Source of the DNA: a virus
Virus record (IMG/VR): IMGVR_UViG_3300031949_000014
Direction: 5' to 3' (one strand)
Length of the DNA: 64,000 bases
The position numbers and the translations under genes were made by a program. Below the pieces are notes generated by a model. It did no database searches. It was not told the origin of the DNA and was given only the letters and a program-made list of their open reading frames with translations. Shown here piece by piece: positions 965 through 45,149 of this stretch; the first letter of the stretch is position 1, and each line of letters opens with the position of its first letter.

Positions 965-3055
965 GTGCCCGCGCCCGCTGCCGCTGTTGAGACCCGCGAA
1001 GCTGTCCTGAAGAGGATCAAATGGGAGCGCCCCGGCAACGCGTGGAAGCTCCTGCAGATGACCAATGGCCAGACCTGGAAGGGCGCCGTCGGTGACGTCC
1101 TGCCGGGTGCATTCTTGAAGGCCGAGGGCGTCGAGGTCACGGACAACTTCGGCCTCGCGTTCGAGGTCAAGACGCTCCTCAGCTCGGTCTTGAAGGGCGC
1201 CGCCGGCGTCGAGGCCTGGATGACGTACCGCATGCCAGAGATCGGCGCTGTTCGTGCCCGCGCCCTGGTCGAGCGTTTCGGCGAGGACCTCGGGGCCACC
1301 ATCTTGAACACGCCTGCGGCGTTGGCGACCGTGCCAGGCATCACGATGGAGCGCGCGACCGCCATCCAGACGGCCTACCTCGGCTACCAGGATGAGCTCG
1401 CTTGGGTGCCGAAGCTCGTCAACAACGGCCTGCAGATGGCCCACGCCCTTGCCACTTTCAAGGCCCACGGCGTCGGCCTCGAGCAGGTCTTGGACACGGA
1501 CCCGTACGTGTTGGTGGACGTCGAGGGGCTCAGTTTCGAGGTCGTGGACGCCCTGGCGCGCCGTCTGGGCATGTCCGAGAAGGACCCCCGCCGCATGCGC
1601 GCCTGGGTGCGCAACATGCTCGAAGAGGACCTCGACGAAGGCCACTGCAACCGGCCGCTGGTCGAGGTCATCGTCGCCATCGCTAAGTGGGGTTTCCCCG
1701 CCCGCGAGGTCATCGACTTGCTGAAGCCCTCGAAGCACCTCTGGATCGAGGAGAAGACCATCTCTCTCGCGCGCATCGCCTACGCCGAGCGCCGGGTCGC
1801 CGCGGGGGTCCGAGGGCTGGTTGAGCAGGGACAGCGCGAGCTGGGCGAGGTCGAGTTGCCCGAGAGCCTCGACGCGTCGCAGAAGGCCGCCGCGCTCGCT
1901 CTCCTGGTCGAGCCCATCGTCGTCATGACCGGCGGGCCGGGCGTGGGCAAGACGCATACGCTCAAGAGCGCCCTGGACGTCATCGAATCCCGCGGCGAGC
2001 GCCCGGTCCTCGCGGCGTTCACCGGCAAGGCCGCCAAGCGCATGTCGGAGGTCACGGGGCGCCCGGCGAGCACGATTCACAAGCTCATCGGTTGGACGCC
2101 GACGGGTTGGAAGTGCGGTCCGGGCGAGCCTATTGCTGCGGACGTCATCGTCATCGACGAGGCCTCGATGGTCGACGTCGAACTCGCCGCGGCGCTCCTC
2201 GACGCCATCGGCGAGGGCACCAGGCTCATTTTGGTGGGCGACGTCGACCAAATACCTCCCGTTGGTCCGGGGCAGCCCTTGGTCGACATCATTCGTTCTG
2301 CGAAGGTTCCGGTGCATACGCTCACGAAGACGCACCGACAGTCGGCGAAAAGTTGGGTCATCGACAACGCTCGACGCATCATCAACGGGGAGGTGCCGAA
2401 CCTCGAGAGCGACGGCAGCTTCGATTTCATGGCGTGCACGGATTCGGACATGATTGTGGCTGTCGTCGTCGCGATGCAGAAGAAGTTCCCGAACGTGCAG
2501 GTCTTGACGCCGGAGCACAAGAAGGGCGCCGGCACCGTTCGCCTAAACAACGAGATTCAGGCTGCCGTCAACCCGCGCTCGAAAGAACAGTGGGCCTCGT
2601 TCATCGAGTCCAACGGCTGCAGGATTTTCGCCGGCGACCGCGTCATCTACACCAGGAACCAGCTCGGCTTGGTCAACGGCGACCTCGGTCTCGTCGAGGA
2701 CGTCGAAGTCATCGGCAACAGGAAGGTCGTCACCGTCCGCTTTGTTGGCGTCGAGAATCCAGATCCTGAGAGCATCGACGGCCTCTTCAAGCTGCAGGAC
2801 GGCAACGTGCGGCCGCTGCAGCTCGCGTACGCGCTGACCGTGCACAAGTTCCAGGGGTCGGAGCACCCCGAGGTCGTGGTCGTCGCCGACGAGGCCCACT
2901 GGAGCTTCCGCCGGCAGCTTCTCTACACCGCGGTCACGCGCACGTCCGACAAGCTCGGCATCGTCGGCTCGCGCGAGGCCGTTGCGCGCGCGGTTGCGAA
3001 GCCCAGGGACACGAATCGCAGGACGAGGTTGGTGGAGAGGATTGGTGGAGCGTGA
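965..3055 (+). CDS. recD2: RecD2-like SF1B helicase
   Basis: HhH (TVPGITMERATAI), Walker A GGPGVGKT, Walker B VIDEASM, LVGDVDQIPPVG, LTKTHRQ, AYALTVHKFQGSE, LLYTAVTR. Confidence 0.93.
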   Translation: MPAPAAAVETREAVLKRIKWERPGNAWKLLQMTNGQTWKGAVGDVLPGAFLKAEGVEVTDNFGLAFEVKTLLSSVLKGAAGVEAWMTYRMPEIGAVRARALVERFGEDLGATILNTPAALATVPGITMERATAIQTAYLGYQDELAWVPKLVNNGLQMAHALATFKAHGVGLEQVLDTDPYVLVDVEGLSFEVVDALARRLGMSEKDPRRMRAWVRNMLEEDLDEGHCNRPLVEVIVAIAKWGFPAREVIDLLKPSKHLWIEEKTISLARIAYAERRVAAGVRGLVEQGQRELGEVELPESLDASQKAAALALLVEPIVVMTGGPGVGKTHTLKSALDVIESRGERPVLAAFTGKAAKRMSEVTGRPASTIHKLIGWTPTGWKCGPGEPIAADVIVIDEASMVDVELAAALLDAIGEGTRLILVGDVDQIPPVGPGQPLVDIIRSAKVPVHTLTKTHRQSAKSWVIDNARRIINGEVPNLESDGSFDFMACTDSDMIVAVVVAMQKKFPNVQVLTPEHKKGAGTVRLNNEIQAAVNPRSKEQWASFIESNGCRIFAGDRVIYTRNQLGLVNGDLGLVEDVEVIGNRKVVTVRFVGVENPDPESIDGLFKLQDGNVRPLQLAYALTVHKFQGSEHPEVVVVADEAHWSFRRQLLYTAVTRTSDKLGIVGSREAVARAVAKPRDTNRRTRLVERIGGA

Positions 3056-3267
3056 AGTATTTTGTTCGCGTACTTGGGTTAATGTACTGCGGTATCGCGC
3101 TCGGCTATTACATGCAGGGTGGGGTCTGGGGAATTTGGCTCGCCATCGCCAACTTGCACTTGTTCATCGGGGAGCTGGCTTCTAGGTTGGATGAACTCGA
3201 GAAGAAGCGCGAACGAGGCGTCGTTCGAAATGACTTGGGGACTCAGGGAGGGGCTTGGTTGTCGTGA
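3052..3267 (+). CDS. Small membrane protein
   Basis: GTGA overlap with the helicase stop; two hydrophobic segments. Confidence 0.6.
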   Translation: MKYFVRVLGLMYCGIALGYYMQGGVWGIWLAIANLHLFIGELASRLDELEKKRERGVVRNDLGTQGGAWLS

Positions 3268-3980
3268 AACCCATCTACTCCACCATCGACCCCGTGTTCT
3301 CTCTCCCGCGGCGCGTGTCGCTCGCGGACAAGCCCGCGACAGCGAGGTTGAAGTTGAGCGAGGTGCAGCCTGCCGCGAAGGTTTCTCCCATCGTCGCAGT
3401 GATTGCCAATGTCAAAGCGTCGCGCGAGGGCGTCGCATGCCTGTGCGGCGGCGATGCGTGGGTCGCCCCCTCCAACAAGGCCGCGTACACGTGCGCGGTG
3501 TGCGCGCGGATGATCAGCTATGCCGACATGTGCCAAAGGAAGGCCGCGCTCGTTTCATCTGTGCGGTGGCCGCCGACCGCGACTGGCATCGTGGAGAGCT
3601 TGCCGCCGGAAGAGCGCTGGCGCGGAGATGTGCTCTGGCTCGGCAGGTACGACCTCGCGCCGAATGAATACGGCGCGTTGCGTTTTACGCCGCACGGGGG
3701 CTTCTTGCCGAAACGCTTCCGCATCACCGCGAGCGGGCCCGGTGTTCGGGTGCAGGTAGCGATTCAAGATCGCTTTCAGTACCGGCCAGCGAACAACTAC
3801 TTCATCGCCGGGCCGGAGGGCGGTGTTCCTCAAGACCTCTTTGCGGAAGACGCCGTGAACGACGATTTAGATCCCATCCAGCGCCAGGCCAAGGTGGAGG
3901 TGTTCACGTACAACTCGTCGCACGAGCGCAGGATCGGCTATGTCTGGTTCGAGGGTGAGAAGATCAGGGAAGTATGGTGA
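3264..3980 (+). CDS. Hypothetical protein, Zn-ribbon (CLC...CAVC) plus beta-sandwich C-terminal domain
   Basis: GTGA overlap; Cys pairs; beta-rich tail GVPQDLFAEDAVN...VEVFTYN...VWFEG. Confidence 0.7.
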   Translation: MKPIYSTIDPVFSLPRRVSLADKPATARLKLSEVQPAAKVSPIVAVIANVKASREGVACLCGGDAWVAPSNKAAYTCAVCARMISYADMCQRKAALVSSVRWPPTATGIVESLPPEERWRGDVLWLGRYDLAPNEYGALRFTPHGGFLPKRFRITASGPGVRVQVAIQDRFQYRPANNYFIAGPEGGVPQDLFAEDAVNDDLDPIQRQAKVEVFTYNSSHERRIGYVWFEGEKIREVW

Positions 3981-4291
3981 CCGACGACGACATGCTCGAG
4001 CGCCTCCCCCGTCTCGACACCGTCGACCCGCGGAAGGGTTCAGGGCAAGAGCCAGACAAGGCTCCAGACCCGGAGAAGAGCCGCTTCGAGAGCTGGTTCA
4101 TCGGACAGTTTGGCAACCGCCCCGCTCAGAAGAGCGCCGGTAGGTTGTCCGACGCGGTCGCGGTCGCCAAGCAGAACCTGCGCTTGGCTGAGGAGATGTT
4201 CGAGCGCACCGTCCAGTGGGAACACCAGTACGACGCTGCGTTGAAGGCGTGGCGCGAGCGTGAGCGGATGCGCGAGGTTGAGGGGCGATGA
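3977..4291 (+). CDS. Hypothetical protein
   Basis: Coupled by stop/start overlaps in the early gene run. Confidence 0.6.
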   Translation: MTDDDMLERLPRLDTVDPRKGSGQEPDKAPDPEKSRFESWFIGQFGNRPAQKSAGRLSDAVAVAKQNLRLAEEMFERTVQWEHQYDAALKAWRERERMREVEGR

Positions 4292-4509
4292 CGCAGTCCG
4301 ACTACTACCACGAGAAGTACGACATCTCTCTCGATACGTGGCTCGCAGATCGTCGCGAAGGCCTATCGTCTTTCGCTGCGTGGTGGGAAAAGCAAAACGC
4401 GATTGATCCAACGCGCTTTCCGCTGAAGATGTTGGCGGGCGACTGGGACGAGCAGATAGAACTTTGGGGAAGCGCGGCGGTTGCTCCTGCCAAGGCTGAA
4501 GGGCGATGA
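4288..4509 (+). CDS. Hypothetical protein
   Basis: ATGA overlap with the previous gene. Confidence 0.6.
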   Translation: MTQSDYYHEKYDISLDTWLADRREGLSSFAAWWEKQNAIDPTRFPLKMLAGDWDEQIELWGSAAVAPAKAEGR

Positions 4510-4784
4510 AGTCTCCTTTGAGAACTCTGAGGCTGCTCTCTTCCCTCTTCTTGCAGGACGCACCGCCGACATACGACCGCACGGGCTACGACATCGGCCG
4601 CCGCGTGCGTTGGCTCGACAGAGAGGGGAAGACGATGCGCGGCGTAGTTTACGGGACTGACAAGCTGACGATGCCGGCGTCGGAATTCGGGGAGGAGCAG
4701 AGCATGATCTGCCTCTTGATCCGAGATGACGAGGGTCGCGAGTGGAGTGTTGGACCCGGTGTCGAACTCCAGGACGACGAATGA
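4506..4784 (+). CDS. Hypothetical protein, SH3-like beta barrel
   Basis: ATGA overlap; IGRRVRW...RGVVYG...WSVGPG. Confidence 0.6.
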   Translation: MKSPLRTLRLLSSLFLQDAPPTYDRTGYDIGRRVRWLDREGKTMRGVVYGTDKLTMPASEFGEEQSMICLLIRDDEGREWSVGPGVELQDDE

Positions 4785-5143
4785 ACACCGTTGAAGCGTT
4801 CAACATCGTCGACGAACTGCTCGTCGACAGAAAGCCGCTCGAGGTGGACCAGAGCACGTTGAATGTGCTCGCGATGCACCCCTACGCCCGCGTGCACCGC
4901 TTCGACGCGAAGCCGCCATTGGTCGCCGAGGTGCTCGTCAAAGTCGGCAACGAGGAATTCGTCGTCCGTCGGATTCCACCGCTGGCGCCGAAACCGCAGC
5001 CCGTGCAGTACGAGTTCCGCGGTCTCGTCTGCGAGACCCATGGGCAAGTGGCACACCGTCGCGTTCGCATCGACATCCGTAATCCTTCGCCGCCGGGTGT
5101 TTGGGAATGCGTCGAGTGCGTGCCGTTGCCGCCGGAGGTGTGA
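4781..5143 (+). CDS. Hypothetical protein with Cys/His Zn-binding tail
   Basis: ATGA overlap; CETHG...WECVEC. Confidence 0.6.
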   Translation: MNTVEAFNIVDELLVDRKPLEVDQSTLNVLAMHPYARVHRFDAKPPLVAEVLVKVGNEEFVVRRIPPLAPKPQPVQYEFRGLVCETHGQVAHRRVRIDIRNPSPPGVWECVECVPLPPEV

Positions 5144-5144
5144 C

Positions 5145-5426
5145 GTGGGCAACCCTTTCGACGACATCTTCTCTGCCTTCACGCAGCAGCGCACGGACTT
5201 GTTCAACGACGCCTTGGGGAAATTGCGCGTGAAGGCCGCGCAGGAGAAGGCGACTGAGGAGAGGGTGCAGACGTTGATCCGTAAGGCCCAGAACAACATC
5301 GACCGCGCACACAACAGGGCAATTCGTGCGGCCGCGGAGGTCGAGGACTTGGACTTCTTTGCCAAGAAGAAGATCCTCCGCCTCGTGAAGCCCGTGCGTC
5401 ACGCCGAGGAGTTCGGAGAGTCGTGA
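5145..5426 (+). CDS. Hypothetical coiled-coil protein
   Basis: GTG start after GGAGG; helical, charged. Confidence 0.6.
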   Translation: MGNPFDDIFSAFTQQRTDLFNDALGKLRVKAAQEKATEERVQTLIRKAQNNIDRAHNRAIRAAAEVEDLDFFAKKKILRLVKPVRHAEEFGES

Positions 5427-31221: not shown

Positions 31222-31524
31222 CTACTCCTCTTCAGTCAGCTCTGGCAAGTTCGGGGGCAACCTCAACGGCTCGGTGAGTTTGCGCAGGACCAGGAGCGCC
31301 ACCGCGAACCCCGGCGCCGCGGCCGCAAGCGCCAACCCCCCGTCGAAATGGAAGGTGGCAGAGGTCAACAAGAACGTGCTCCAGAAAGACATGCAAACGT
31401 CGCACGCCCAGGGCTTCTTCTGCTCCCGGACGAGCCTCTGAACGAGCGGGAGCGCGCGCAAGAAGACAACGAGACCAGCAGCGGAAAGGCCGACGAGGAT
31501 GACGCGGAAAAACAAGTCGGTCAT
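31222..31524 (-). CDS. DUF1360-like membrane protein
   Basis: TM segments flanking WACDVCMSFW. Confidence 0.65.
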   Translation of the reverse strand: MTDLFFRVILVGLSAAGLVVFLRALPLVQRLVREQKKPWACDVCMSFWSTFLLTSATFHFDGGLALAAAAPGFAVALLVLRKLTEPLRLPPNLPELTEEE

Positions 31525-31910
31525 TCAAATCTCCGACCAGCGCGTTCCTCGGCCTCGACCCAGTCGCCCCAGCTTGTGGCCCAGACGCGCCCGCGATCGA
31601 GGTCGAGGAGAATTGTCGGCTCGTAGGTCTCCCCCTTGTTCACATAGTACGCGCCGTGCGCTCCGTGCTGGTCATCGTCGTCTGAGCGGATGTACTCGAC
31701 GCCGCTTCCGTCGAGAATCTTGTCCGCTTGTTCCAACATCGCGCGCGTCTTCAACTGCCGGTCGCGCCAGGCGAGAAGCAGCTTACGGAGCTGGGAGATC
31801 TTCAGCGCAACGAATTCGTCGCTCGGGATGCGCCCAGGGAACGACAGATCCTTGCGAATCGTTGAAGAGAGCATGCGCCTGAGCATCTCTTTGCTGGGTA
31901 TGCTGCGCAT
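31521..31910 (-). CDS. Conserved phage hypothetical protein
   Basis: GVEYI...YVNKGETYEPTILLD...TSWGDWVE. Confidence 0.7.
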   Translation of the reverse strand: MRSIPSKEMLRRMLSSTIRKDLSFPGRIPSDEFVALKISQLRKLLLAWRDRQLKTRAMLEQADKILDGSGVEYIRSDDDDQHGAHGAYYVNKGETYEPTILLDLDRGRVWATSWGDWVEAEERAGRRFE

Positions 31911-32158
31911 CAGCTTTCCTCCACCTGAAAGTACTTCAAACCACGTCCGAGGCGCCAGTGCTCGATCACTCTCCCGTTGTAGAAGACGGCGATCTCGGGC
32001 CAGGTGAACATCGTCCCCGGCACGGCCATTTTCTTCATCCGGCGCACCAGGTCCGCGGCTTCCTTCTTCGTCCCGACCGCCTTCTTTCCCGACGCGTTGT
32101 CGGGTTGAAGTTCACGATGGAGCTTGTGGTCCCGCCAGACGGCGACGACGTAGGTCAC
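31910..32158 (-). CDS. Hypothetical protein
   Basis: Coupled stop/start. Confidence 0.55.
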   Translation of the reverse strand: MTYVVAVWRDHKLHRELQPDNASGKKAVGTKKEAADLVRRMKKMAVPGTMFTWPEIAVFYNGRVIEHWRLGRGLKYFQVEES

Positions 32159-32454
32159 AACCCTGCCCGCCTCAACTTGTCGTAGTACCTCGGGTCCTCG
32201 GTGAGGTGGTCCATGGCGATTTCGCGAGCGAGCTTCTTGCTCCGCGTGTGCTCCATCTCGACGCGTGTACCGATCTTCAACTGCTTCGCGCTGAAATCCG
32301 ACGGCCGCATGCCAGAAGCCCGCCCCCCAGGAATGCGTTCGCGGTATGCGGATGAAAACCCACTTCGCGCCGGTCTCGCCACGGCAGCGACCGTGAACAA
32401 GCCGATGGCCGCGGCGAGAGCAAGAGGAACAGCGCCTGGAGGAGCTTCAGCCAT
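32155..32454 (-). CDS. Membrane-anchored DUF5661-like protein
   Basis: GTRVEMEHT...AREIAMDHLTEDPRYYDKL after a TM leader. Confidence 0.75.
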   Translation of the reverse strand: MAEAPPGAVPLALAAAIGLFTVAAVARPARSGFSSAYRERIPGGRASGMRPSDFSAKQLKIGTRVEMEHTRSKKLAREIAMDHLTEDPRYYDKLRRAGL

Positions 32455-32457
32455 CGA

Positions 32458-32853
32458 TCACCTGTAGAAGTGCGCGTTCGGGTACTTCTCCAACACTTTG
32501 CGCTTCGCCTCAGCACGCGAACTCGCGCGCAGCATGGCGTCCACCGTGCCTTCGTCGTTGGCGTACCAGTAGAGCGGCGCACCCCAACCGAAGTACGTGC
32601 CGTTTGGGTCATAGCCGCCGGAGTTGAGCCGGATGCGCTGCAGCGAGAGCTTCATCGACTCCGTCGCCGGTGCTTCGTGAATCGTCCTGCGGCCGAGCGC
32701 CGCGCCTCGCCGCGGGTCGCCGCCCCAACCTCGTGGGTCGTTCCGCTTGTAGCTGGGCCCCGCGAGACCGCTGCGACGCGGACGCGCAACGACGGACACA
32801 GTGAACAACCCGATGGCCGCGGCGAGCGCGAGAGGAACTGAACCCGGAGTCAT
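32458..32853 (-). CDS. Membrane-anchored phage hypothetical protein sharing its leader with 32155-32454
   Basis: VPLALAAAIGLFTV leader; RIRLNSGGYD...YFG.GAPLY cargo. Confidence 0.7.
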   Translation of the reverse strand: MTPGSVPLALAAAIGLFTVSVVARPRRSGLAGPSYKRNDPRGWGGDPRRGAALGRRTIHEAPATESMKLSLQRIRLNSGGYDPNGTYFGWGAPLYWYANDEGTVDAMLRASSRAEAKRKVLEKYPNAHFYR

Positions 32854-33365
32854 CGACGGGCGCCTTTCCTGTACCTGTGCCTGTGCCTGAAGGCACGCAC
32901 CCCACCAAGCCCGGCGCGACGCCGGCGAGCAACGATGGCGGCCACCGAGATGGCGAGGACACCGAACGTGAGCCCCCACCAGTTTGCATGCCCGGTGATG
33001 TTCTCTTCTGGTAGCGTGACGGCTTTAGAAGGGTCGCTCACCACGAGTTCAACTCGCTGCAAGCCGGTTGTCGCCACAGCGAGCGCGCCGATTGCGCGTT
33101 GCAATTCAGCCTGCCGCGCCGCGAGGTCCTCCTTCGTACGACACCACACCCCAGAACCAAAACCGTCGTCGTACCACTGCACAGCAGACTGGAATGTCGT
33201 CCACAGAGCATCCTTCACGCTCTTTGTCAGCTTGGGGTAACGGAGAGCCTCGTCCCAGAGCGCTCCCCAATCCGCATTCAACTTCTGGGCCGCGTTGAAG
33301 TTCGCCGTGCACGCGACAACAGCGCCGAAGCCAGAGAAGGAGCGATTCTGTTGGGTCTCGAACAT
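32850..33365 (-). CDS. Hypothetical protein with C-terminal TM and basic tail
   Basis: FSGFG near the N-terminus; RAGLGG after the TM. Confidence 0.65.
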   Translation of the reverse strand: MFETQQNRSFSGFGAVVACTANFNAAQKLNADWGALWDEALRYPKLTKSVKDALWTTFQSAVQWYDDGFGSGVWCRTKEDLAARQAELQRAIGALAVATTGLQRVELVVSDPSKAVTLPEENITGHANWWGLTFGVLAISVAAIVARRRRAGLGGVRAFRHRHRYRKGARR

Positions 33366-33559
33366 CAACGGCCCTTGCGGTATCGACTGACGCACTTGAC
33401 CATCTGCCAGCGGCCACTCGGAAGCCTCTTATGAACGCAGCTCCGCATGTTGCCCATCGCGATGGCGTAACGGGCTTGCTCAATCGCCGCCCTCTTCGTC
33501 GTAAAGGTGGAGAAGTGGCGCGTCGAACTGTAGGTGGTCTTGTAGAGCTGCTTTTTCAT
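33365..33559 (-). CDS. Small basic protein
   Basis: MKKQLYK start; coupled. Confidence 0.55.
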   Translation of the reverse strand: MKKQLYKTTYSSTRHFSTFTTKRAAIEQARYAIAMGNMRSCVHKRLPSGRWQMVKCVSRYRKGR

Positions 33560-35602: not shown

Positions 35603-37123
35603 CTACGCCGCAGCGATCGTTCGCATCGGCCTCATCATCGGTGCGACGCGGTTGCCGAGCAACGCCCGACGCACCATACGTGCGCGCGACAGAGCGACGC
35701 TCGCCGCCTGAGCCTTCTGCAAAGCCCGAGCACGCTGTGGCCACGACATCGCCGACACCGCACTGCGCGCGGCCGCGACGCCTTGCGCCTTCAACGCCTG
35801 GAGCTTGTTCTTGCCAGCGACGCGCGTGAACGCACCGACCTGGTTCGCGAACAACTTGCGCGTGAACGCGTTGTCGGAGACCGCGTCGAGCATGTCGGCG
35901 ACCGAGAGTTCTGCCAAACCCACCGTGCTGGGCAAGAGCGGCATGCGCGGCGCGTAGTTCGAGCCCCCGCCGTAGTTCGCGCCCTCGGAGGGGTCGATGA
36001 CGTTCGTGCGCGCCGTGCTGAACGGCGTCAGGTACCTCGACGGCGAGCTGCGGCCGGTGCCGGGGCCCGTCGGCGTCATGCTCGAGCCCGCGGCTTCGAA
36101 GTACGCGTCGAGCGACGCGAAGTCGCCGTACGTGTCCGCGCGGCCGGTCGGGATCGGTCCACCCGAGAGGCCGTGGAAGTCGGCGTACGTGTCGGCGCGA
36201 CCGGTCGGGAGTCCGCCAGCAAGACCAGCGTTCGAAGGCGTGAGCGGCATGCCGCCAGTCCACGACGAGCCGCCCGAGTACAGAGCGCCGCCGGAAGGGT
36301 CGATGACGTTCGTGCGCGGCGGCAGAACGCCGGTCGCGATGCTGCGCAGGTCTGCGTCGGCGAAGTCGCCGGCGAGGCCGACTGCACTGGGCATCACGGG
36401 CATACCCGGCGCCCAATTCGAACCGCCGCCGTAGTTCCCTCCTTCGGAAGGATCGATGACGTTGCGGCGCACCGTGGAGAACGGAGCGACGTAGCGGGAG
36501 GGGGAGCTGCGTCCGGTCGCCGGACCCGTCGGCGTCATGCTCATAGCATCGCCGTCGAGCGCCGCAAAGTCAACGTACGTGTCTGCGCGACCTGTTGGGA
36601 GGGGACCTCCGGCAAGACCGGAAAGAGGCATCTGCATCTGCTGAATCCACGATTGAACTCTGGCCCTCGGCAGAGTGGCGGGCCAAACATCCAAGACTTG
36701 CCCCGTTTTTGCGAGATAGACAAAGCTGTCTTCATACACGTCGTGGTGTTGCCCAGGTGTCGCTTGAGCAGCTTGCGTGGCTTTGATCAATTCGCGAAAG
36801 ATGCCCTGCGCTCTACCACGACCGTTCGTGCGCTGAACGCTCGTTGGTTGTTCTCCCCCGAGCACTTGAACCACCACGTACGGAGACACGGCTCCAAGAC
36901 CCCCCGCGAGGCCGATGCTGCTGGGCAACAACGGCATGCGCGGCGCGTAGTTTGACCCGCCGCCGTAGTTCGCACCTTCGGACGGGTCGATGACGCCGCT
37001 GCGCGCCGTCGAAAACGGCGTGAGATAGCGCGAGGGGGAGCTTCGCCCTGTCGAGAGGCCCGTCGGCGTCATGCCGTCCAAGCCGTCGAGTACGGCGATT
37101 TCGTCTCCCAAGTGCCTGCTCAT
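35603..37123 (-). CDS. Repeat-rich protein (putative polyprotein), 506 aa
   Basis: GGAGG RBS and ATGA overlap at 37123; VIDPSxG repeat x4, PTGRADTY repeat x3. Confidence 0.8.
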   Translation of the reverse strand: MSRHLGDEIAVLDGLDGMTPTGLSTGRSSPSRYLTPFSTARSGVIDPSEGANYGGGSNYAPRMPLLPSSIGLAGGLGAVSPYVVVQVLGGEQPTSVQRTNGRGRAQGIFRELIKATQAAQATPGQHHDVYEDSFVYLAKTGQVLDVWPATLPRARVQSWIQQMQMPLSGLAGGPLPTGRADTYVDFAALDGDAMSMTPTGPATGRSSPSRYVAPFSTVRRNVIDPSEGGNYGGGSNWAPGMPVMPSAVGLAGDFADADLRSIATGVLPPRTNVIDPSGGALYSGGSSWTGGMPLTPSNAGLAGGLPTGRADTYADFHGLSGGPIPTGRADTYGDFASLDAYFEAAGSSMTPTGPGTGRSSPSRYLTPFSTARTNVIDPSEGANYGGGSNYAPRMPLLPSTVGLAELSVADMLDAVSDNAFTRKLFANQVGAFTRVAGKNKLQALKAQGVAAARSAVSAMSWPQRARALQKAQAASVALSRARMVRRALLGNRVAPMMRPMRTIAAA

Positions 37124-37881
37124 GATGTCCTCCAGTTGCGTTTGTAGCGCTTTTTCGAGAATTTTCCTAGCCCCGCCAAGGCGGTCTTTCGTCGGTTCAA
37201 CCAGATGGCGAGCGCGCCGAGGCCGATGCCGCCCCAAATGACGGCGCTCTTCCAATCGGTGGGTCTCTCGGGTTCGAGCGCCTTGCACTCTTCGACCGTG
37301 AGCTTCTTCTCGAGGCACAGCTTCCGGAGCTTCTCCACGGAGCCGTAGTAGGTCTCCACCTCACCGTTGAGGACGTTGTCCAACCCCTGCGCGGCGACCG
37401 CGGCACCGCCCGCCACGGCGACCGCGGGAGTCCTCAAGAGCATGACGAGCCCTTCCCAGAGGGGTCCGGCAAAGCGCGCGGCCCAAGAGGCAACTTGCTC
37501 AAGGTCGCCGAAGCCTTGAAGCAGTCCCATGACACGTGCCGACCCCGCCGGGATGTCCGGCAACGGGGTCAACAACAAGTCGACAACCCGTTTTACGTTC
37601 GATGTTACCTCGGCGAAGTACGCCTCGAGCTCGCCGACGCGACCGAAGCCGGAGAAACCGACACCAGCGGTCTCGATGACACCTTGAAGCTTCGAATCCT
37701 TCTCGATGATGTCCGCGGCGCGCTGCTTCAAGCGCTCGGCCGCACGGAGCCAGTCCGCGTACGCCTCCAGCACCTCCGGACGAAGCGTGCCTCCGGCCAA
37801 GATCGCGGCATCGATGGCGGCGGAGAGCGGCCCGACGCTCTTGCCGAAGGACTGCAAGGTCGAGACAAGCTTTGTCCACAT
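37120..37881 (-). CDS. Helical protein with C-terminal TM and basic tail (start may be GTG 37923)
   Basis: Contains FSGFG, QGFGD and AGLGK; TM VIWGGIGLGALAIWL. Confidence 0.65.
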   Translation of the reverse strand: MWTKLVSTLQSFGKSVGPLSAAIDAAILAGGTLRPEVLEAYADWLRAAERLKQRAADIIEKDSKLQGVIETAGVGFSGFGRVGELEAYFAEVTSNVKRVVDLLLTPLPDIPAGSARVMGLLQGFGDLEQVASWAARFAGPLWEGLVMLLRTPAVAVAGGAAVAAQGLDNVLNGEVETYYGSVEKLRKLCLEKKLTVEECKALEPERPTDWKSAVIWGGIGLGALAIWLNRRKTALAGLGKFSKKRYKRNWRTS

Positions 37882-37909
37882 CGGCGAAGAAGCCGTCGTC
37901 TGCGGGAGT

Positions 37910-40510
37910 TCAGCGGCGAACACTGGATCGTCCCTTCGCCTTGAACTTCGGGGACACGCGCGACGTCCGCGCGGTCGACGTCGGGGGTTTGCTCTTCGAG
38001 AACGCAAGCGCGAGGCCGCCGGCGGCGGCGAGGCCCAGGAAGATCGCTCCAGCACCCATGCCGCCCTCTTCGGTGGCAGGGGGCGCGGGAGGAACGTCTG
38101 GCGGAGGAGCAACCGGACCATCGACCGGTGGCGCATCAGGAGGCGGCTGGTACGGAGGCGGCGCAATCGGAGGCGGAACGTCCGGCGGAAGCGGCTGGTA
38201 CGGAGGCGGCGCAATCGGAGGTGGTGGTTGCGGTTGCTCACCGCCTCCGTTGATCGGGGGCTTCTGGTCGAACAAGCCGAACTTCTGAGCTTGTTCAAAC
38301 TCTTGAGGATCGAGCTGCTCGCCCGCGGAGATCTTCCCCTGCAAGCACCCGCGCAAGTCGCCTCCTCGAGAGAAGCAGCTTCCACCGATTGGCGGATTCC
38401 CTCCGTACTGCTTCTCCAGCCAGATCTGCTCACCCTTCGCGACGACTTTACCTTGCGCCGCTGGCAACAAAATCGTCCGCGCATCCGACGACAAGAGGCG
38501 AGGCAACGCGCGCACGGTGATCTCGCGAAGCGTCGGAGTCATCTGAAACAGATCGAAGTAGGCCGCCTGCGTCGCATCGTCCCACGTGCCGCTCGCCACG
38601 ACCTTCGGGTACTTGTTCGTCACCATCAACGTGTGCTGCAGCGCGAGTACCGGTGTCGGCACAGTAGAGAGCTTGACGACAGCGTTGACCTCCGCATCTC
38701 CGGTCGGCTTCGACGGCTTCTTCGGCTCGACGATGCCGCCCGCTGCGGCCTTCAATGCCTCGTACGTGGCGGGGTTCACCGCCATCGTCACACCGTCGAC
38801 GCGCGAGACCCCCTGGTCGAGCTTGCGCCTGCGCGCTTGATCTTCCCACGCGCGCTTGGTGTCCGGACCCCACTTGCCGTCCGAGATCTTCCCTTTGGAA
38901 CCGAGCTTTCGAACGATGCCCTGACCCTCGGTCACCGAAATGTTGATGCTCCCAGCCGGCGTCGGCACAGGCTTCTTTCTGTCGTCCGGCACCGGTGCAC
39001 GCGCTGCCTCGTCCTTCAACCGAGCGTACGCGTCGGCATCCACGGCCATCGTCTTGCCGTCGATGCGCACGGCGTTCTGCGCGAGGCCGCGAGCCTTCGA
39101 TGCGCGCTGCCACGCGCCCTGCGTGTTCGCGCCGAACAGACCGTCGACGACCAGCGGTTTGCCGTTGTTCCCTGGAACACCGAGGGCCTTCAAGATGGTC
39201 TGAGCCTCGAAGACCGCGACTGGAACACCCGCGACAGTTGGCGGGAGCTTCTTCGGTTGGTCTGGCACCGGCGGCTTGTCTGCCTCGGTCTTCAAGCGGG
39301 CGAGCGTGTCGGCCGACACGGCCATCGTCTTGCCGTCGATGCGCGAGACACCGGAATTCAAACCGCGCTGCTTGGCTGCGGTCTCCCACGCAAACTGCGT
39401 GTTCTGACCGAAGAGCCCGTCGGTCTTCAGCGTCTTTTTGTCCTTCCCCTTCACCCCGAGTTTCACCAAGAGGATCTGAGCCTCGAATACAGAAGTCGCC
39501 ACAGCTCCAGCCGGCAAGCCTTTCGGCGCAGGCTTCGGTCCCTCAGGTGTCGTAGGCTTCTCGGGCGTGGGCGGCGCGGCCTTGGCGCCGTCGGCTTGGA
39601 TCTTGTCGTACGTCGCCTGACTCACTCGCGCGGTGCGCCCATCCACGCGCTCGAACGTCTGCGGCAGCCCACGGAGCTTCGCGGAGAACGCCCATGCAGT
39701 CTTGGTCTGCGGACCGTAGAGGCCGTCCTTCGTCAACTTCTTCGACGTCCAGCCCACGCCGTACAAGAGCTCTTGCAGCTCGAGCACCGGGCGTTCGACG
39801 GTGCCCGCGCGCGGCGCGGTCGCGGTCTCCTTCGGGATGCTCGGAGCCAGAGCCTTTGGTTGAGGCGTGCTCTTCGCGACGGCCTCGAGCGCGGCCAACG
39901 TCTGTTGGTTCACCGTGGCGGTCTTGCCGTCGACGCGCTCGAAGAGAGGCGAGAGGCCGCGCTTGGTGGCGGATTGAATCCAAGCTCCGCGCGTCGCAGG
40001 ACCGAACTTGCTGTCGGGGTTCACCTGCTTGGTCGTCCAGCCGAGGCGGTTCAAGAGGCGCTGCAGGTCGAGCACGGGGCGACGGACGGTGCCTGGAGCA
40101 CTGGGGGTGCCGGAAGGAAGCGCTGTAGGCGTTGACGTCGGCGATGCGGCCGACCACGCCGGGACCTGGTCGGTGTACGCCGGGCGCAAGTTCTGCACCG
40201 TGACCGGATGCACCCACGCCGTCTGCGGCCCTGCGCGGTCGAACGCCGGGTTCAGACCCTTCGAGATTGCCAGCTTCTGCCACGCCGCGCGCGTGTTCGG
40301 GCCGTAGAGTCCGGCACCGCCCGCGGTCAACAGAGTGCCGCTCGGGCTCTTCGTCACGCCGTTGGCTTCGAGAAGTTGCTGCGCCTCAAGCACGCTGAGC
40401 TGCGTGAGTCCCGACGACGCGGGCACGACGGTCGCCGAGAGCGCGTCGCCCGCGGAGAACTCGTCGAGGTAGCTCGACAGTCCCTGTAGGTCGTCGTAGC
40501 CGCGCATCAC
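37910..40510 (-). CDS. Seven-repeat peptidoglycan-binding-like protein with Pro-rich stalk and C-terminal TM
   Basis: Repeats such as VLELQELL...DGLYGPQTKTAW...FERVDGRTARV. Confidence 0.8.
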   Translation of the reverse strand: MMRGYDDLQGLSSYLDEFSAGDALSATVVPASSGLTQLSVLEAQQLLEANGVTKSPSGTLLTAGGAGLYGPNTRAAWQKLAISKGLNPAFDRAGPQTAWVHPVTVQNLRPAYTDQVPAWSAASPTSTPTALPSGTPSAPGTVRRPVLDLQRLLNRLGWTTKQVNPDSKFGPATRGAWIQSATKRGLSPLFERVDGKTATVNQQTLAALEAVAKSTPQPKALAPSIPKETATAPRAGTVERPVLELQELLYGVGWTSKKLTKDGLYGPQTKTAWAFSAKLRGLPQTFERVDGRTARVSQATYDKIQADGAKAAPPTPEKPTTPEGPKPAPKGLPAGAVATSVFEAQILLVKLGVKGKDKKTLKTDGLFGQNTQFAWETAAKQRGLNSGVSRIDGKTMAVSADTLARLKTEADKPPVPDQPKKLPPTVAGVPVAVFEAQTILKALGVPGNNGKPLVVDGLFGANTQGAWQRASKARGLAQNAVRIDGKTMAVDADAYARLKDEAARAPVPDDRKKPVPTPAGSINISVTEGQGIVRKLGSKGKISDGKWGPDTKRAWEDQARRRKLDQGVSRVDGVTMAVNPATYEALKAAAGGIVEPKKPSKPTGDAEVNAVVKLSTVPTPVLALQHTLMVTNKYPKVVASGTWDDATQAAYFDLFQMTPTLREITVRALPRLLSSDARTILLPAAQGKVVAKGEQIWLEKQYGGNPPIGGSCFSRGGDLRGCLQGKISAGEQLDPQEFEQAQKFGLFDQKPPINGGGEQPQPPPPIAPPPYQPLPPDVPPPIAPPPYQPPPDAPPVDGPVAPPPDVPPAPPATEEGGMGAGAIFLGLAAAGGLALAFSKSKPPTSTARTSRVSPKFKAKGRSSVRR

Positions 40511-43466: not shown

Positions 43467-45149
43467 TCAAGTCGGAAAGATTCGCGACGCGTCGACCATC
43501 GCCTTCGGAGCTTCCCAACCCACAGGCATGTTGACGGAAGCGTCGAACGAAATCCACTTCTTCGGATTCCTACGCGGGTGACCGACCTGCGCGTAGATGT
43601 GATTCCACTCCGGCGAACCCTTCGTCCTGATGACCTTGAACCGACAAGGTAAACCCAGAGTCGCGGCCGAAGCGCAGGTCAAAACAGAGTAATCATCGCA
43701 GTTGTGAACGATGACATCTTGCTCGGGCAAGTAGAACCTGTGGCTGTCGGTTTCGATGTCGTACACAGGCACGTAGTCGCCCTCGGAAATGCTGCGCACC
43801 TTAGCCCACGGACGAGAGAAATTATCCACCCGAACCGTGACCCGATAGATCGGGTTGAGCCCAAACCCACCGTGCTCAGTCACACGCTTTATGGACGTAC
43901 TTCTGCCGCAGATGCGTTGGAGGATCCTGTACTGGACCGCGAGCAACTTCGACGTCGTAGAGAACACGAAATTCTTACCGCTGGTCGAAAACCCACCGTC
44001 CGCGCTCAAGCCTTCGAGCAGCTTCTCCGCGGTCTGTTTTGACCATCGCGTGTGAGGTAACTGCTTGTGGACAGCCGTGGTGCCGCAACCGGAGAAGAGC
44101 TTTGCTACCGCACCTGGGCCCGCGTCTCCATCTGACAAGTAGATCTCGCGCTCGTGCTCCCGCACAGTGAACCCGAGACTCTTGGCGTGCTTTGCCGCCT
44201 TCTCGCGGATGCCTTTGCCGTTGCATACCCCCGCGATTCCGACGCACGCGAGCGCACCATCCACACGAAACCGACGACGACTTCCCTCGGCCAAATAGGC
44301 CCCTAGAAGAAAAGCCTCGTCGTCGGACAGCTCTTGTGTGTCGGAGAAAGCTGTCTCGCGAGGCTGCAACAAATCGTTGCCCGGCCGCACAGCACTGGCC
44401 AGCACCTCTTCAACCTGTGCGAACCCTCCTGCCCTCCCACTCTGTTGAGGAACGCGGAATAGCTTGTGGCCTTCAGTGCAACGCAACACCGAGCCGTTGT
44501 TCAGTTCCAAATCCAGAGTTGACTGGATTCCCTTGTCCCACCAGTTCGTGACCTTCGCCCAACCTGTGCCGTCGAAGATGACCTCGCCGACCTTGATGTC
44601 TTCGATGGCGACCAAGAGGCCGTCCGCGCGCAAGAGCTGCGTTCCCTCCGGCAAGCAATCCCCAGTGCGCAGCTTCAACGTGTGCCTGGGCGCCTGGTAG
44701 GAATCGATGCCGGCGATGTCGGACGTGTACCGGACGTTCCCGCGGATGGCTTGGAAGAGGGCTTTGATCTCGGCGAGGTTGTCCTTCTCCGGGACACACC
44801 AGTTGGAGCCGCATTTCTTGTTCACCGCGCGGCGCGCGAACTCGTAGACGACGGGGTCTCGCTTGCCTTGCTCGACGAGCTTGCGGAGGTACTCGATGCG
44901 CTCGTCCAAGTTCTTGATCTGGTGGGTCTTCAGCCGAATGTCCCCTGACGGCGTCTTCGCGTGTTGCCCTTCGAAACCTCTGACGTAAGTGCTGGACGAA
45001 GACCGCGCCGAACCTCGTCCCGAAGTACGGCTAGCACGTTGACTCCGTGTCGTGTTTGACGGGGAGCTTAGGTGCCGGGCCCCGACGGAAAGCTGCCGGA
45101 GGCCGAGCACCACGGACGCCAAACCCAGCACGACGTTACCGAGCGCCAC
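43467..45149 (-). CDS. Transglutaminase-like Cys protease interrupted by an intein
   Basis: Spliced RTGD-CDDY; NHIY; FDAS; N-terminal hydrophobic anchor. Confidence 0.85.
   Translation of the reverse strand: MALGNVVLGLASVVLGLRQLSVGARHLSSPSNTTRSQRASRTSGRGSARSSSSTYVRGFEGQHAKTPSGDIRLKTHQIKNLDERIEYLRKLVEQGKRDPVVYEFARRAVNKKCGSNWCVPEKDNLAEIKALFQAIRGNVRYTSDIAGIDSYQAPRHTLKLRTGDCLPEGTQLLRADGLLVAIEDIKVGEVIFDGTGWAKVTNWWDKGIQSTLDLELNNGSVLRCTEGHKLFRVPQQSGRAGGFAQVEEVLASAVRPGNDLLQPRETAFSDTQELSDDEAFLLGAYLAEGSRRRFRVDGALACVGIAGVCNGKGIREKAAKHAKSLGFTVREHEREIYLSDGDAGPGAVAKLFSGCGTTAVHKQLPHTRWSKQTAEKLLEGLSADGGFSTSGKNFVFSTTSKLLAVQYRILQRICGRSTSIKRVTEHGGFGLNPIYRVTVRVDNFSRPWAKVRSISEGDYVPVYDIETDSHRFYLPEQDVIVHNCDDYSVLTCASAATLGLPCRFKVIRTKGSPEWNHIYAQVGHPRRNPKKWISFDASVNMPVGWEAPKAMVDASRIFPT
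43701..44657 (-). mobile_element. 319-aa intein with LAGLIDADG homing endonuclease
   Basis: C1-LPEGTQL, CTEGHKLF (block B), LLGAYLAEGS, LLEGLSADGG, VYDIET, VIVHN then C+1. Confidence 0.93.

Follow-up and report, generated by a model that had tools for sequence, protein, structure and literature searches.

A portable leader, predicted to be a membrane anchor, heads exchangeable small phage domains in a variable gene slot of an uncultured virus

In this study, we closely examined two adjacent genes, here named A and B, in a stretch of 64,000 nucleotides (the window) from the virus record IMGVR_UViG_3300031949_000014 of IMG/VR. Both genes open with the same leader of 30 to 32 residues, which is followed in each of them by an unrelated cargo domain. 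The comparative evidence that this leader is portable is strong: sequence comparisons establish it as a module in its own right that heads different cargos, is restricted to a narrow clade, and is kept in its exact sequence by purifying selection. In the explanation that we favor, with moderate confidence, the leader would be a sequence-specific membrane anchor of N-out/C-in topology, in which a short uncharged or acidic N terminus precedes an 18-residue hydrophobic helix, and VARP, a basic spacer, and a small-Gly-Leu/Phe linker follow. It would head a hypervariable slot within the late structural gene run of a narrow clade of large tailless soil viruses, where whole small phage proteins would be set in frame behind it and traded among sibling viruses by recombination, for which the leader and the conserved genes beside the slot would supply the homology arms. 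In this way, the leader would tether small, exchangeable accessory domains to the lipid membrane of the virus, on the side that also bears the basic tails of its C-terminally anchored proteins, and the domains would travel with the particle.

The leaders of genes A and B share the pattern VPLALAAAIGLFTV..VARP.RSG[FL], with the 25-residue motif reading VPLALAAAIGLFTVAAVARPARSGF in gene A and VPLALAAAIGLFTVSVVARPRRSGL in gene B. The original prediction had placed one 25-residue leader on two neighboring genes and had limited their similarity at the DNA level to this leader. Open reading frames and alignments confirmed both statements, including the coordinates and the motif. The DNA of the two leaders is 78% identical across the first ~95 nucleotides, with 34 identical positions in a core of 38 nucleotides, and the similarity stops exactly at the junction between leader and cargo. 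A degenerate back-translation of the core matched the window exactly twice, in genes A and B, versus no match in 100 shuffles.

When residues 1 to 40 served as the query in a word-indexed search of 5.8 billion proteins, P0096 was the only leader match, and an exhaustive HMMER search with a profile built from four leader sequences yielded three true matches (P0216, P0217, and P0218) among 1.84 billion cluster representatives. Two other proteins matching the leader profile, P0219 and P0220, are translated repeat arrays and were rejected. At the DNA level, scans of the IMG/VR and GTDB genomes gave no leader match, and two true loci, here named L004 and L017, were found in the JGI metagenomes. Altogether, six leader proteins were identified, namely, those of genes A and B, P0216 (L004:1797-2144), P0217 (L017:33-305), P0218, and P0096. 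According to profile and BLASTP comparisons, they carry six mutually unrelated cargos: a DUF5661 domain in gene A (cargo A), a member of the RLNSGGYD family in gene B (cargo B), orphans of 83 residues in P0216 and 57 residues in P0217 (cargos C and D), a phrog_16160 domain in P0218 (cargo E), and a cargo of its own in P0096.

Cargo E aligns with positions 2 to 65 of the 69 positions of the phrog_16160 profile (E = 7e-18), and two tailed phages encode relatives of it as free-standing proteins with lengths of 66 to 69 amino acids. A PHROGs search gave no match for cargo A, cargo B, or the two orphans, and Pfam gave none for cargo B, the two orphans, cargo E, or P0096. An ESM Atlas search with cargo C, for which the structural model was poor, returned no usable feature match. 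P0096 was also considered as a frameshifted or diverged form of cargo B, which was rejected based on a score of -2.4 bits against the family profile and no matches in alternative frames. As anticipated in the original prediction, homologs in tailed phages lack the leader, which was found for three of the cargo families (DUF5661, RLNSGGYD, and phrog_16160), and no homolog elsewhere carried the same leader, its occurrence being limited to a handful of sibling sequences. Across the collections searched, the leader is confined to a narrow clade of such siblings and does not travel with the cargo families.

The two sibling loci that are available as DNA show how the slot changes its content. In both L004 and L017, a cargo-B gene (ending ...NA[NH]FYR) directly precedes an A-type leader (MAEA..GAVPLALAAAIGLFTVAAVARP) that heads a cargo other than DUF5661. 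In BLASTN comparisons, positions 1493 to 1889 of L004 correspond to window positions 32758 to 32362 with 79% identity, a match that covers cargo B and leader A and breaks off where the leader ends. Positions 1 to 118 of L017 correspond to window positions 32489 to 32372, and the similarity resumes in the next gene, with L017 positions 303 to 529 matching 32157 to 31931; L017:284-727 encodes an ortholog of the 82-amino-acid protein whose gene lies downstream of gene A in the window. These breakpoints delimit a variable cassette bounded by the leader and the next conserved gene. The suggestion that the leader is portable and acquires new cargo by recombination is thus well supported by the six unrelated cargos and by the swaps in L004 and L017 with breakpoints at the leader's end.

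In IMG/VR, a search for siblings with a neighboring protein of 611 amino acids as the single-protein query found nothing, and a search with an alignment of a 100-amino-acid membrane protein found one distant sibling, L050, an 82.7-kb contig of lower GC content. A slot-flanking protein of ~100 amino acids is present in all siblings (window positions 31222 to 31524 on the minus strand, L004:2347-2649, L017:762-1055, and L050:4941-5297). Two or more membrane-spanning segments are predicted for this protein, which carries the invariant motif KPWACDVCMS[FL]W and has no Pfam match.

The hydrophobic core of the leader, VPLALAAAIGLFTV (14 residues), is the same in all six leader proteins. In the four leaders for which DNA is at hand (window A, window B, L004, and L017), substitutions at 13 of the 20 core codons are all synonymous, 5 codons are invariant, and 2 contain amino acid changes, both in the leader of gene B. 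By comparison, cargo B of the window and that of L004 differ at 34 codons synonymously and at 17 nonsynonymously out of 99. Since the amino acids of the core are invariant while the codons vary synonymously, the leader sequence itself is under purifying selection. A generic anchor would accept exchanges among Leu, Ile, Val, and Ala, and the anchors of DUF5661 relatives do vary freely in sequence, unlike the leader core. From this constraint, we infer that the core may have a specific partner in the membrane.

The N-terminal starts MAEAPPG, MTPGS, MAEASPG, MGPGS, and MTPGS (the last in P0096) contain no Lys or Arg ahead of the core, and the leader of L017 alone has a single Arg at this place. 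On the C-terminal side, two or three Arg or Lys residues follow a helix with an 18-residue Kyte-Doolittle mean of 2.28 to 2.29 (2.29 for gene A). From this hydrophobicity and charge distribution, the leader is predicted to be a single-pass membrane anchor, with its N terminus outside, its C terminus inside, and the cargo on the basic side, the equivalent of the cytoplasm. A small or acidic residue followed by G-[LF] is kept in five of the six leaders, P0096 being the one without it, and the spacing after VARP varies by 0 to 2 residues. The motif G-[LF]-[GSA] at the leader and tail junctions studied is suggestive but not specific. Neither the short basic leader and Glu at +5 of type IV prepilins, nor the Cys of lipoprotein signals, nor the twin Arg that precede the core in Tat signals is present, and these three other types of N-terminal signal were rejected.

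Cargo A matches the Pfam family DUF5661 (PF18905) at residues 57 to 96 with 45.6 bits versus a cutoff of 27 (E = 9.1e-12) and contains the invariant columns of a 120-sequence alignment (G62, E66, E68, H69, I79, H83, L84, and E86). AlphaFold2 predicted a three-helix domain with a predicted local distance difference test score (pLDDT) of 92 to 98 for residues 41 to 99. A Foldseek comparison of this model with the PDB gave no match at an E value of ≤0.001, and a PDB-sequence profile search gave nothing useful. Of the 120 relatives, 21 carry an unrelated N-terminal hydrophobic anchor of their own and 12 a C-terminal one, which indicates that membrane tethering is a recurrent state of DUF5661. The N-terminally anchored relatives also place the domain on the more basic side. 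Their unrelated anchors show a basic cluster and then RR-G-L/ALG ahead of the domain, so that the G-L motif may be an ordinary linker.

In several phages, DUF5661 occurs in other contexts. It is a free-standing protein of 70 amino acids in the tailed phage Cr30 and the N-terminal part of a 252-amino-acid protein in a Flavobacterium phage. In the Vibrio phage vB_VpaM_VPs20 (L001:3338-4606), it occupies residues 206 to 263 of a 422-amino-acid protein, directly behind DUF2213. The respective gene belongs to the head cluster, and since it is located between the terminase large-subunit gene upstream and the DUF2184 gene just downstream, its DUF5661 domain probably enters the procapsid. Furthermore, a protein of 2,039 amino acids in Virus Rctr197k (L030:1-6117) combines InPase, DUF7178, a weak DUF5661 match, and a 2H phosphoesterase. 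This architecture is of the polyvalent-protein type, and polyvalent proteins have been proposed to be packaged and injected (Iyer et al. 2017; PMC5512222).

The family of cargo B, which is large and unnamed, has the motif R[IV]RL[ND]SGGYD (94 matches; best E = 6e-41), and nearly all of its members are free-standing proteins of ~100 amino acids that start with M-x-PSYK.NDP. The homology of gene B therefore begins at residue 33, right after the leader; it extends to residue 131 and includes the invariant positions G45, R49, G50, A52, G54, R55, Y81, D82, Y87, G89, and R109. Together with the near-complete phrog_16160 domain of cargo E, this start at the very position where the free-standing homologs begin supports the view that the cargos are clean modules. 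AlphaFold2 predicted three strands and a helix (pLDDT above 90 for residues 61 to 130), for which Foldseek found no PDB match at an E value of ≤0.001 and a PDB-sequence profile search gave nothing useful. A hydrophobic segment is absent from 92 of 93 metagenome homologs and from all 18 cargo-B loci in IMG/VR, most of which are on contigs of 100 to 435 kb. In the isolated tailed phages CcrPW, CcrColossus, AchV4, RHph_I20, Lana, and PMBT3, the matches span the cargo region alone, and the gene is free-standing in both phages inspected (66 amino acids in RHph_I20 and 102 in AchV4). The original prediction had recognized the two cargo types correctly, as DUF5661-like and of the RLNSGGYD family, and had regarded both as free-standing phage proteins. 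The latter holds for cargo B but not simply for DUF5661, given its N- and C-terminally anchored relatives.

Two relatives of cargo B, P0046 and P0084 (228 to 230 amino acids), have a common C-terminal extension of ~125 amino acids (…YVE.ALWSS…GHDFWLTRN..G.GFWD…) with no Pfam match, which looks like a further unnamed phage domain. P0221, a protein of 65 amino acids on a 49-kb JGI contig, is identical to residues 67 to 131 of gene B and was called from an internal Met; its length is close to that of the minimal 66-amino-acid form in the Rhizobium phage RHph_I20.

The combination of a hydrophobic helix, a basic cluster, and small-G-L/F is found at four places in the window, all on the minus strand: in leader A, in leader B, at the C terminus of a 181-amino-acid protein encoded directly upstream of gene B (...AIVARRRRAGLGG and a basic tail), and at the C terminus of a protein ending at 37120. 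The C-terminal tails of the latter two proteins are paralogous (2 of 2,000 shuffles). Between the 3' half of leader B (SVVARPRRSGLAG) and the tail of the 181-amino-acid protein, the similarity far exceeds chance, with a score reached by none of 2,000 shuffles and with 24 of 31 identical positions in the DNA (4 of 500 shuffles). In L004 (positions 1002 to 1793, plus strand), an ortholog of the 181-amino-acid protein is fused in frame to cargo B within a single open reading frame of 263 amino acids. The junction reads ...AIVARRRRGLGGLSA-PSYK... (also given as ...ARRRRGLGGLSA-PSYK) and comprises 21 nucleotides, versus 158 nucleotides for the basic tail, stop, start, and leader B in the window. 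Since the tail is a conserved paralogous module, the fusion is most simply explained by a deletion between two similar helix-basic-GL segments, which is probably how it arose.

Thus, a helix and a basic cluster precede cargo B in the window virus as well as in L004, and because L004 has helix-RRRR-GLGG in place of a leader, tethering on the basic side appears to be the retained feature. All of these proteins have the same polarity, with the basic segment C-terminal to the helix, so that the cargos behind a leader would share one face of the membrane with the basic tails of the structural proteins. The protein ending at 37120 corresponds to an open reading frame of 454 amino acids (37120 to 38484, minus strand) that overlaps one of 866 amino acids (37910 to 40510, minus strand) by ~575 nucleotides in a different frame; the true start of the former, downstream gene is probably near 37900. 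The 866-amino-acid protein harbors a PG_binding_1 domain (E = 1.2e-13) as well as a C-terminal hydrophobic helix with a Lys/Arg-rich tail, in the polarity of the other anchored proteins, and its peptidoglycan-binding domain suggests a bacterial host. A transglutaminase-like cysteine enzyme with a papain fold was identified by Pfam at 43467 to 45149.

At the locus itself (Table 1), the start of gene B and the stop of the gene before it overlap as ATGA, and three bases separate gene B from gene A downstream. Both genes have Shine-Dalgarno-like sequences and lie in a tightly packed, co-directional arrangement. No promoter- or terminator-like sites were found on the minus strand between 31 and 37 kb, which makes genes A and B part of a long co-directional run. 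Judged by their sequences, their neighbors in this run resemble virion proteins.

Table 1. Positions of genes A and B, their parts, and related features in the window
Feature	Position	Strand	Description and basis
Gene A	32155-32454	minus	99 amino acids (P0002); leader and DUF5661 domain; open reading frame, translation, Pfam, 133 homologs
Leader of gene A	32359-32454	minus	Residues 1-32; short acidic N terminus, 18-residue hydrophobic helix, VARP, basic spacer, SGF; alignments
Cargo A	32158-32343	minus	Residues 38-99; DUF5661 three-helix domain with invariant E-x-E-H and D-H-L-x-E; alignments, AlphaFold2
Gene B	32458-32853	minus	131 amino acids (P0001), ATG at 32853; leader and complete RLNSGGYD-family protein
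Leader of gene B	32758-32853	minus	Residues 1-32; 5' half like A-type leader, 3' half (SVVARPRRSGLAG) like C-terminal tail of the upstream protein
Cargo B	32461-32757	minus	Residues 33-131; homology to free-standing proteins of ~100 amino acids from PSYK onward
Upstream 181-amino-acid protein	32850-33395	minus	C-terminal end with hydrophobic helix, RRRR, AGLGG, basic tail
Downstream 82-amino-acid gene	31910-32158	minus	Conserved; distal boundary of the variable cargo slot; L017 homology resumes at 32157-31931
Paralogous C-terminal tail	37120-37254	minus	Helix, RRK, ALAGLG, and basic tail of the protein ending at 37120; motif scan

The position in the structural run, the shared polarity, and the association of DUF5661 with capsid-bound carriers lead us to infer that the leader proteins are incorporated into the lipid membrane of the virus and, with it, into particles; the leader probably targets the virion inner membrane. 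Several points weigh against this explanation. The membrane of the virus is itself presumed, based here on the many anchored proteins, the virus is uncultured, and a particle role of genes A and B is deduced from sequence. If vesicles form as in PRD1, cargo on the cytoplasm side would come to lie between membrane and capsid and not with the DNA, and since the cargo domains have no known function, calling them effectors would be a guess. Two siblings, L004 and L017, could be read as DNA. In the more distant L050 (positions 2809 to 5297), the same flanking genes enclose three unrelated leaderless genes for proteins of 162, 94, and 148 amino acids that have no hydrophobic segments, and the ortholog of the 181-amino-acid protein stops right after the helix (…FIKR). 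This argues that the leader is a lineage-specific accessory and not a core packaging device. In the genomes compared, the slot serves this virus group as a general hot spot for accessory genes, and the leader is a lineage-specific addition to it.

The L050 arrangement, in which the hypervariable slot is leaderless, would also be expected if genes A and B encoded ordinary membrane-anchored accessory proteins of the moron type. These would act unpackaged in the inner membrane of the infected cell, in superinfection exclusion, lysis timing, or host takeover, and the leader would be a convenient segment for recombination. An N-out/C-in anchor with a cytoplasmic domain is typical of small phage membrane proteins, and the tailed-phage homologs of the cargos are located in early regions and beside lysis genes as well as in head regions. 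This possibility, which we consider real but clearly less probable than a leader that tethers cargo to the virus membrane, conflicts with no observation other than the strict sequence conservation and the gene context: an anchor of a generic kind should accept other hydrophobic residues, but the core stays the same even as its codons change synonymously, the genes lie within the structural run with no promoter of their own, and DUF5661 is recurrently joined to capsid-bound proteins. Export by the Sec pathway, with signal peptidase I cutting after [AV]-V-A and before R-P and the cargo released to the periplasm, is improbable. Although the length of 23 to 26 residues, the small-x-small pattern (AVA/VVA) after the core, and the presence of VARP in all six leaders would suit a signal peptide, five leaders have no Lys or Arg before the core (the sixth, from L017, has its one Arg), the A-type leaders carry a Glu, and RPxRS behind the putative cut places two or three Arg within the first five residues. 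An Arg-rich mature start strongly inhibits Sec export, as known from the positive-inside rule and from export-block studies, and the anchored DUF5661 relatives likewise have their domain on the more basic side. That the shared leader reflects chance similarity or an artifact of assembly or gene calling can be considered very improbable. Three of the four additional leader examples are on short metagenome contigs (585 to 3,925 bp), but the samples are independent, the window holds two copies versus none expected by chance, the codon variation is synonymous, the frames are open, and the domains are recognizable.

Two further proposals would extend the tethering explanation. In one of them, which corresponds to the full model of the original prediction, the leader would be a cleavable loading tag, and a virus protease such as the enzyme at 43467 to 45149 would cut at small-Gly-Leu/Phe after assembly to free the cargo inside the particle; this would add to an anchor function and not replace it. 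Such a cut would release cargo B nearly as its free-standing form, a papain-fold enzyme is encoded nearby, and the G-[LF] motif persists behind a small or acidic residue in all leaders but one despite the shifts in spacing. Furthermore, A-G-L-G follows the helices of two structural proteins, and GLGG is present at the L004 fusion junction. However, the motif is lacking in P0096, RR-G-L/ALG also occurs in the unrelated DUF5661 anchors and is possibly a common helix cap or linker, and short Gly-rich motifs are frequent at 63% G+C. We therefore regard cleavage as rather unlikely. Still more tentative is the proposal of a membrane-borne label for cargo loading, whose helix would be recognized during vesicle or capsid assembly. 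Exchangeable host-takeover or antidefense domains would be held on the DNA side of the inner membrane, released by a protease at small-Gly-Leu, and carried into the next host with the genome. If true, the system would parallel, on a membrane basis, the capsid targeting sequence (CTS) and internal proteins of T4, and it would offer a natural means of loading particles of this kind with foreign proteins.

Should the leader serve as an address label for the virion, it would show how accessory proteins are loaded in an undescribed group of large tailless soil viruses, and position in the slot alone would be enough to locate new host-interaction genes. DUF5661, the RLNSGGYD family, and phrog_16160 would gain a common context as particle-carried or membrane-tethered accessory domains. 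Even if the leader is an anchor and nothing else, the locus is a clean natural case in which modules were captured in frame and the breakpoints could be mapped.

Tailed phages are known to combine conserved targeting leaders with rapidly changing cargo, examples being the T4 internal proteins and MuF/portal-fused effectors. To our knowledge, a shared leader with exchangeable cargo has not been described for prokaryotic membrane-containing viruses, including those of the PRD1/PM2 type. Like the small membrane proteins of PRD1/PM2-type viruses, the leader proteins are small, single-pass, and encoded among late structural genes of a tailless virus with a presumed membrane; no sequence similarity to these proteins was found in Pfam or PHROGs. 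Polymorphic toxin loci (CdiA-CT, Rhs, and MuF toxins) also combine a conserved N-terminal part, which runs to a short motif, with unrelated, recombined C-terminal modules. Here, in contrast, the conserved part measures ~30 residues, with no immunity genes and no recognized toxin domains. Polyvalent proteins and MuF/portal-fused effectors similarly bring disparate small or enzymatic domains onto a particle-bound carrier (PMC5512222), and DUF5661 occurs there and behind DUF2213. These carriers hold many domains per polypeptide or are structural fusions, whereas the carrier here would be a membrane helix with one domain per gene, so that genes A and B do not qualify as polyvalent proteins, which have at least two disparate domains; a relative of cargo A alone is found in such a protein.

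The closest functional analog is probably the capsid targeting sequence of T4. According to a passage in PMC3012670, which cites Repoila et al. (1994), the T4 leader directs proteins to the assembling particle, and its cargo includes the injected antidefense protein IPI*. The T4 sequence is a soluble peptide of ~10 residues that binds the scaffolding core and is cut by the prohead protease, unlike the hydrophobic helix and basic spacer described here, which show no likeness to the CTS sequence and no L/I-x-E site at the leader junction. The likeness is one of logic at the level of the genes: as in the T-even phages with their internal proteins, diverse and rapidly changing small proteins encoded at a variable locus have nothing in common but a short N-terminal leader that is conserved.

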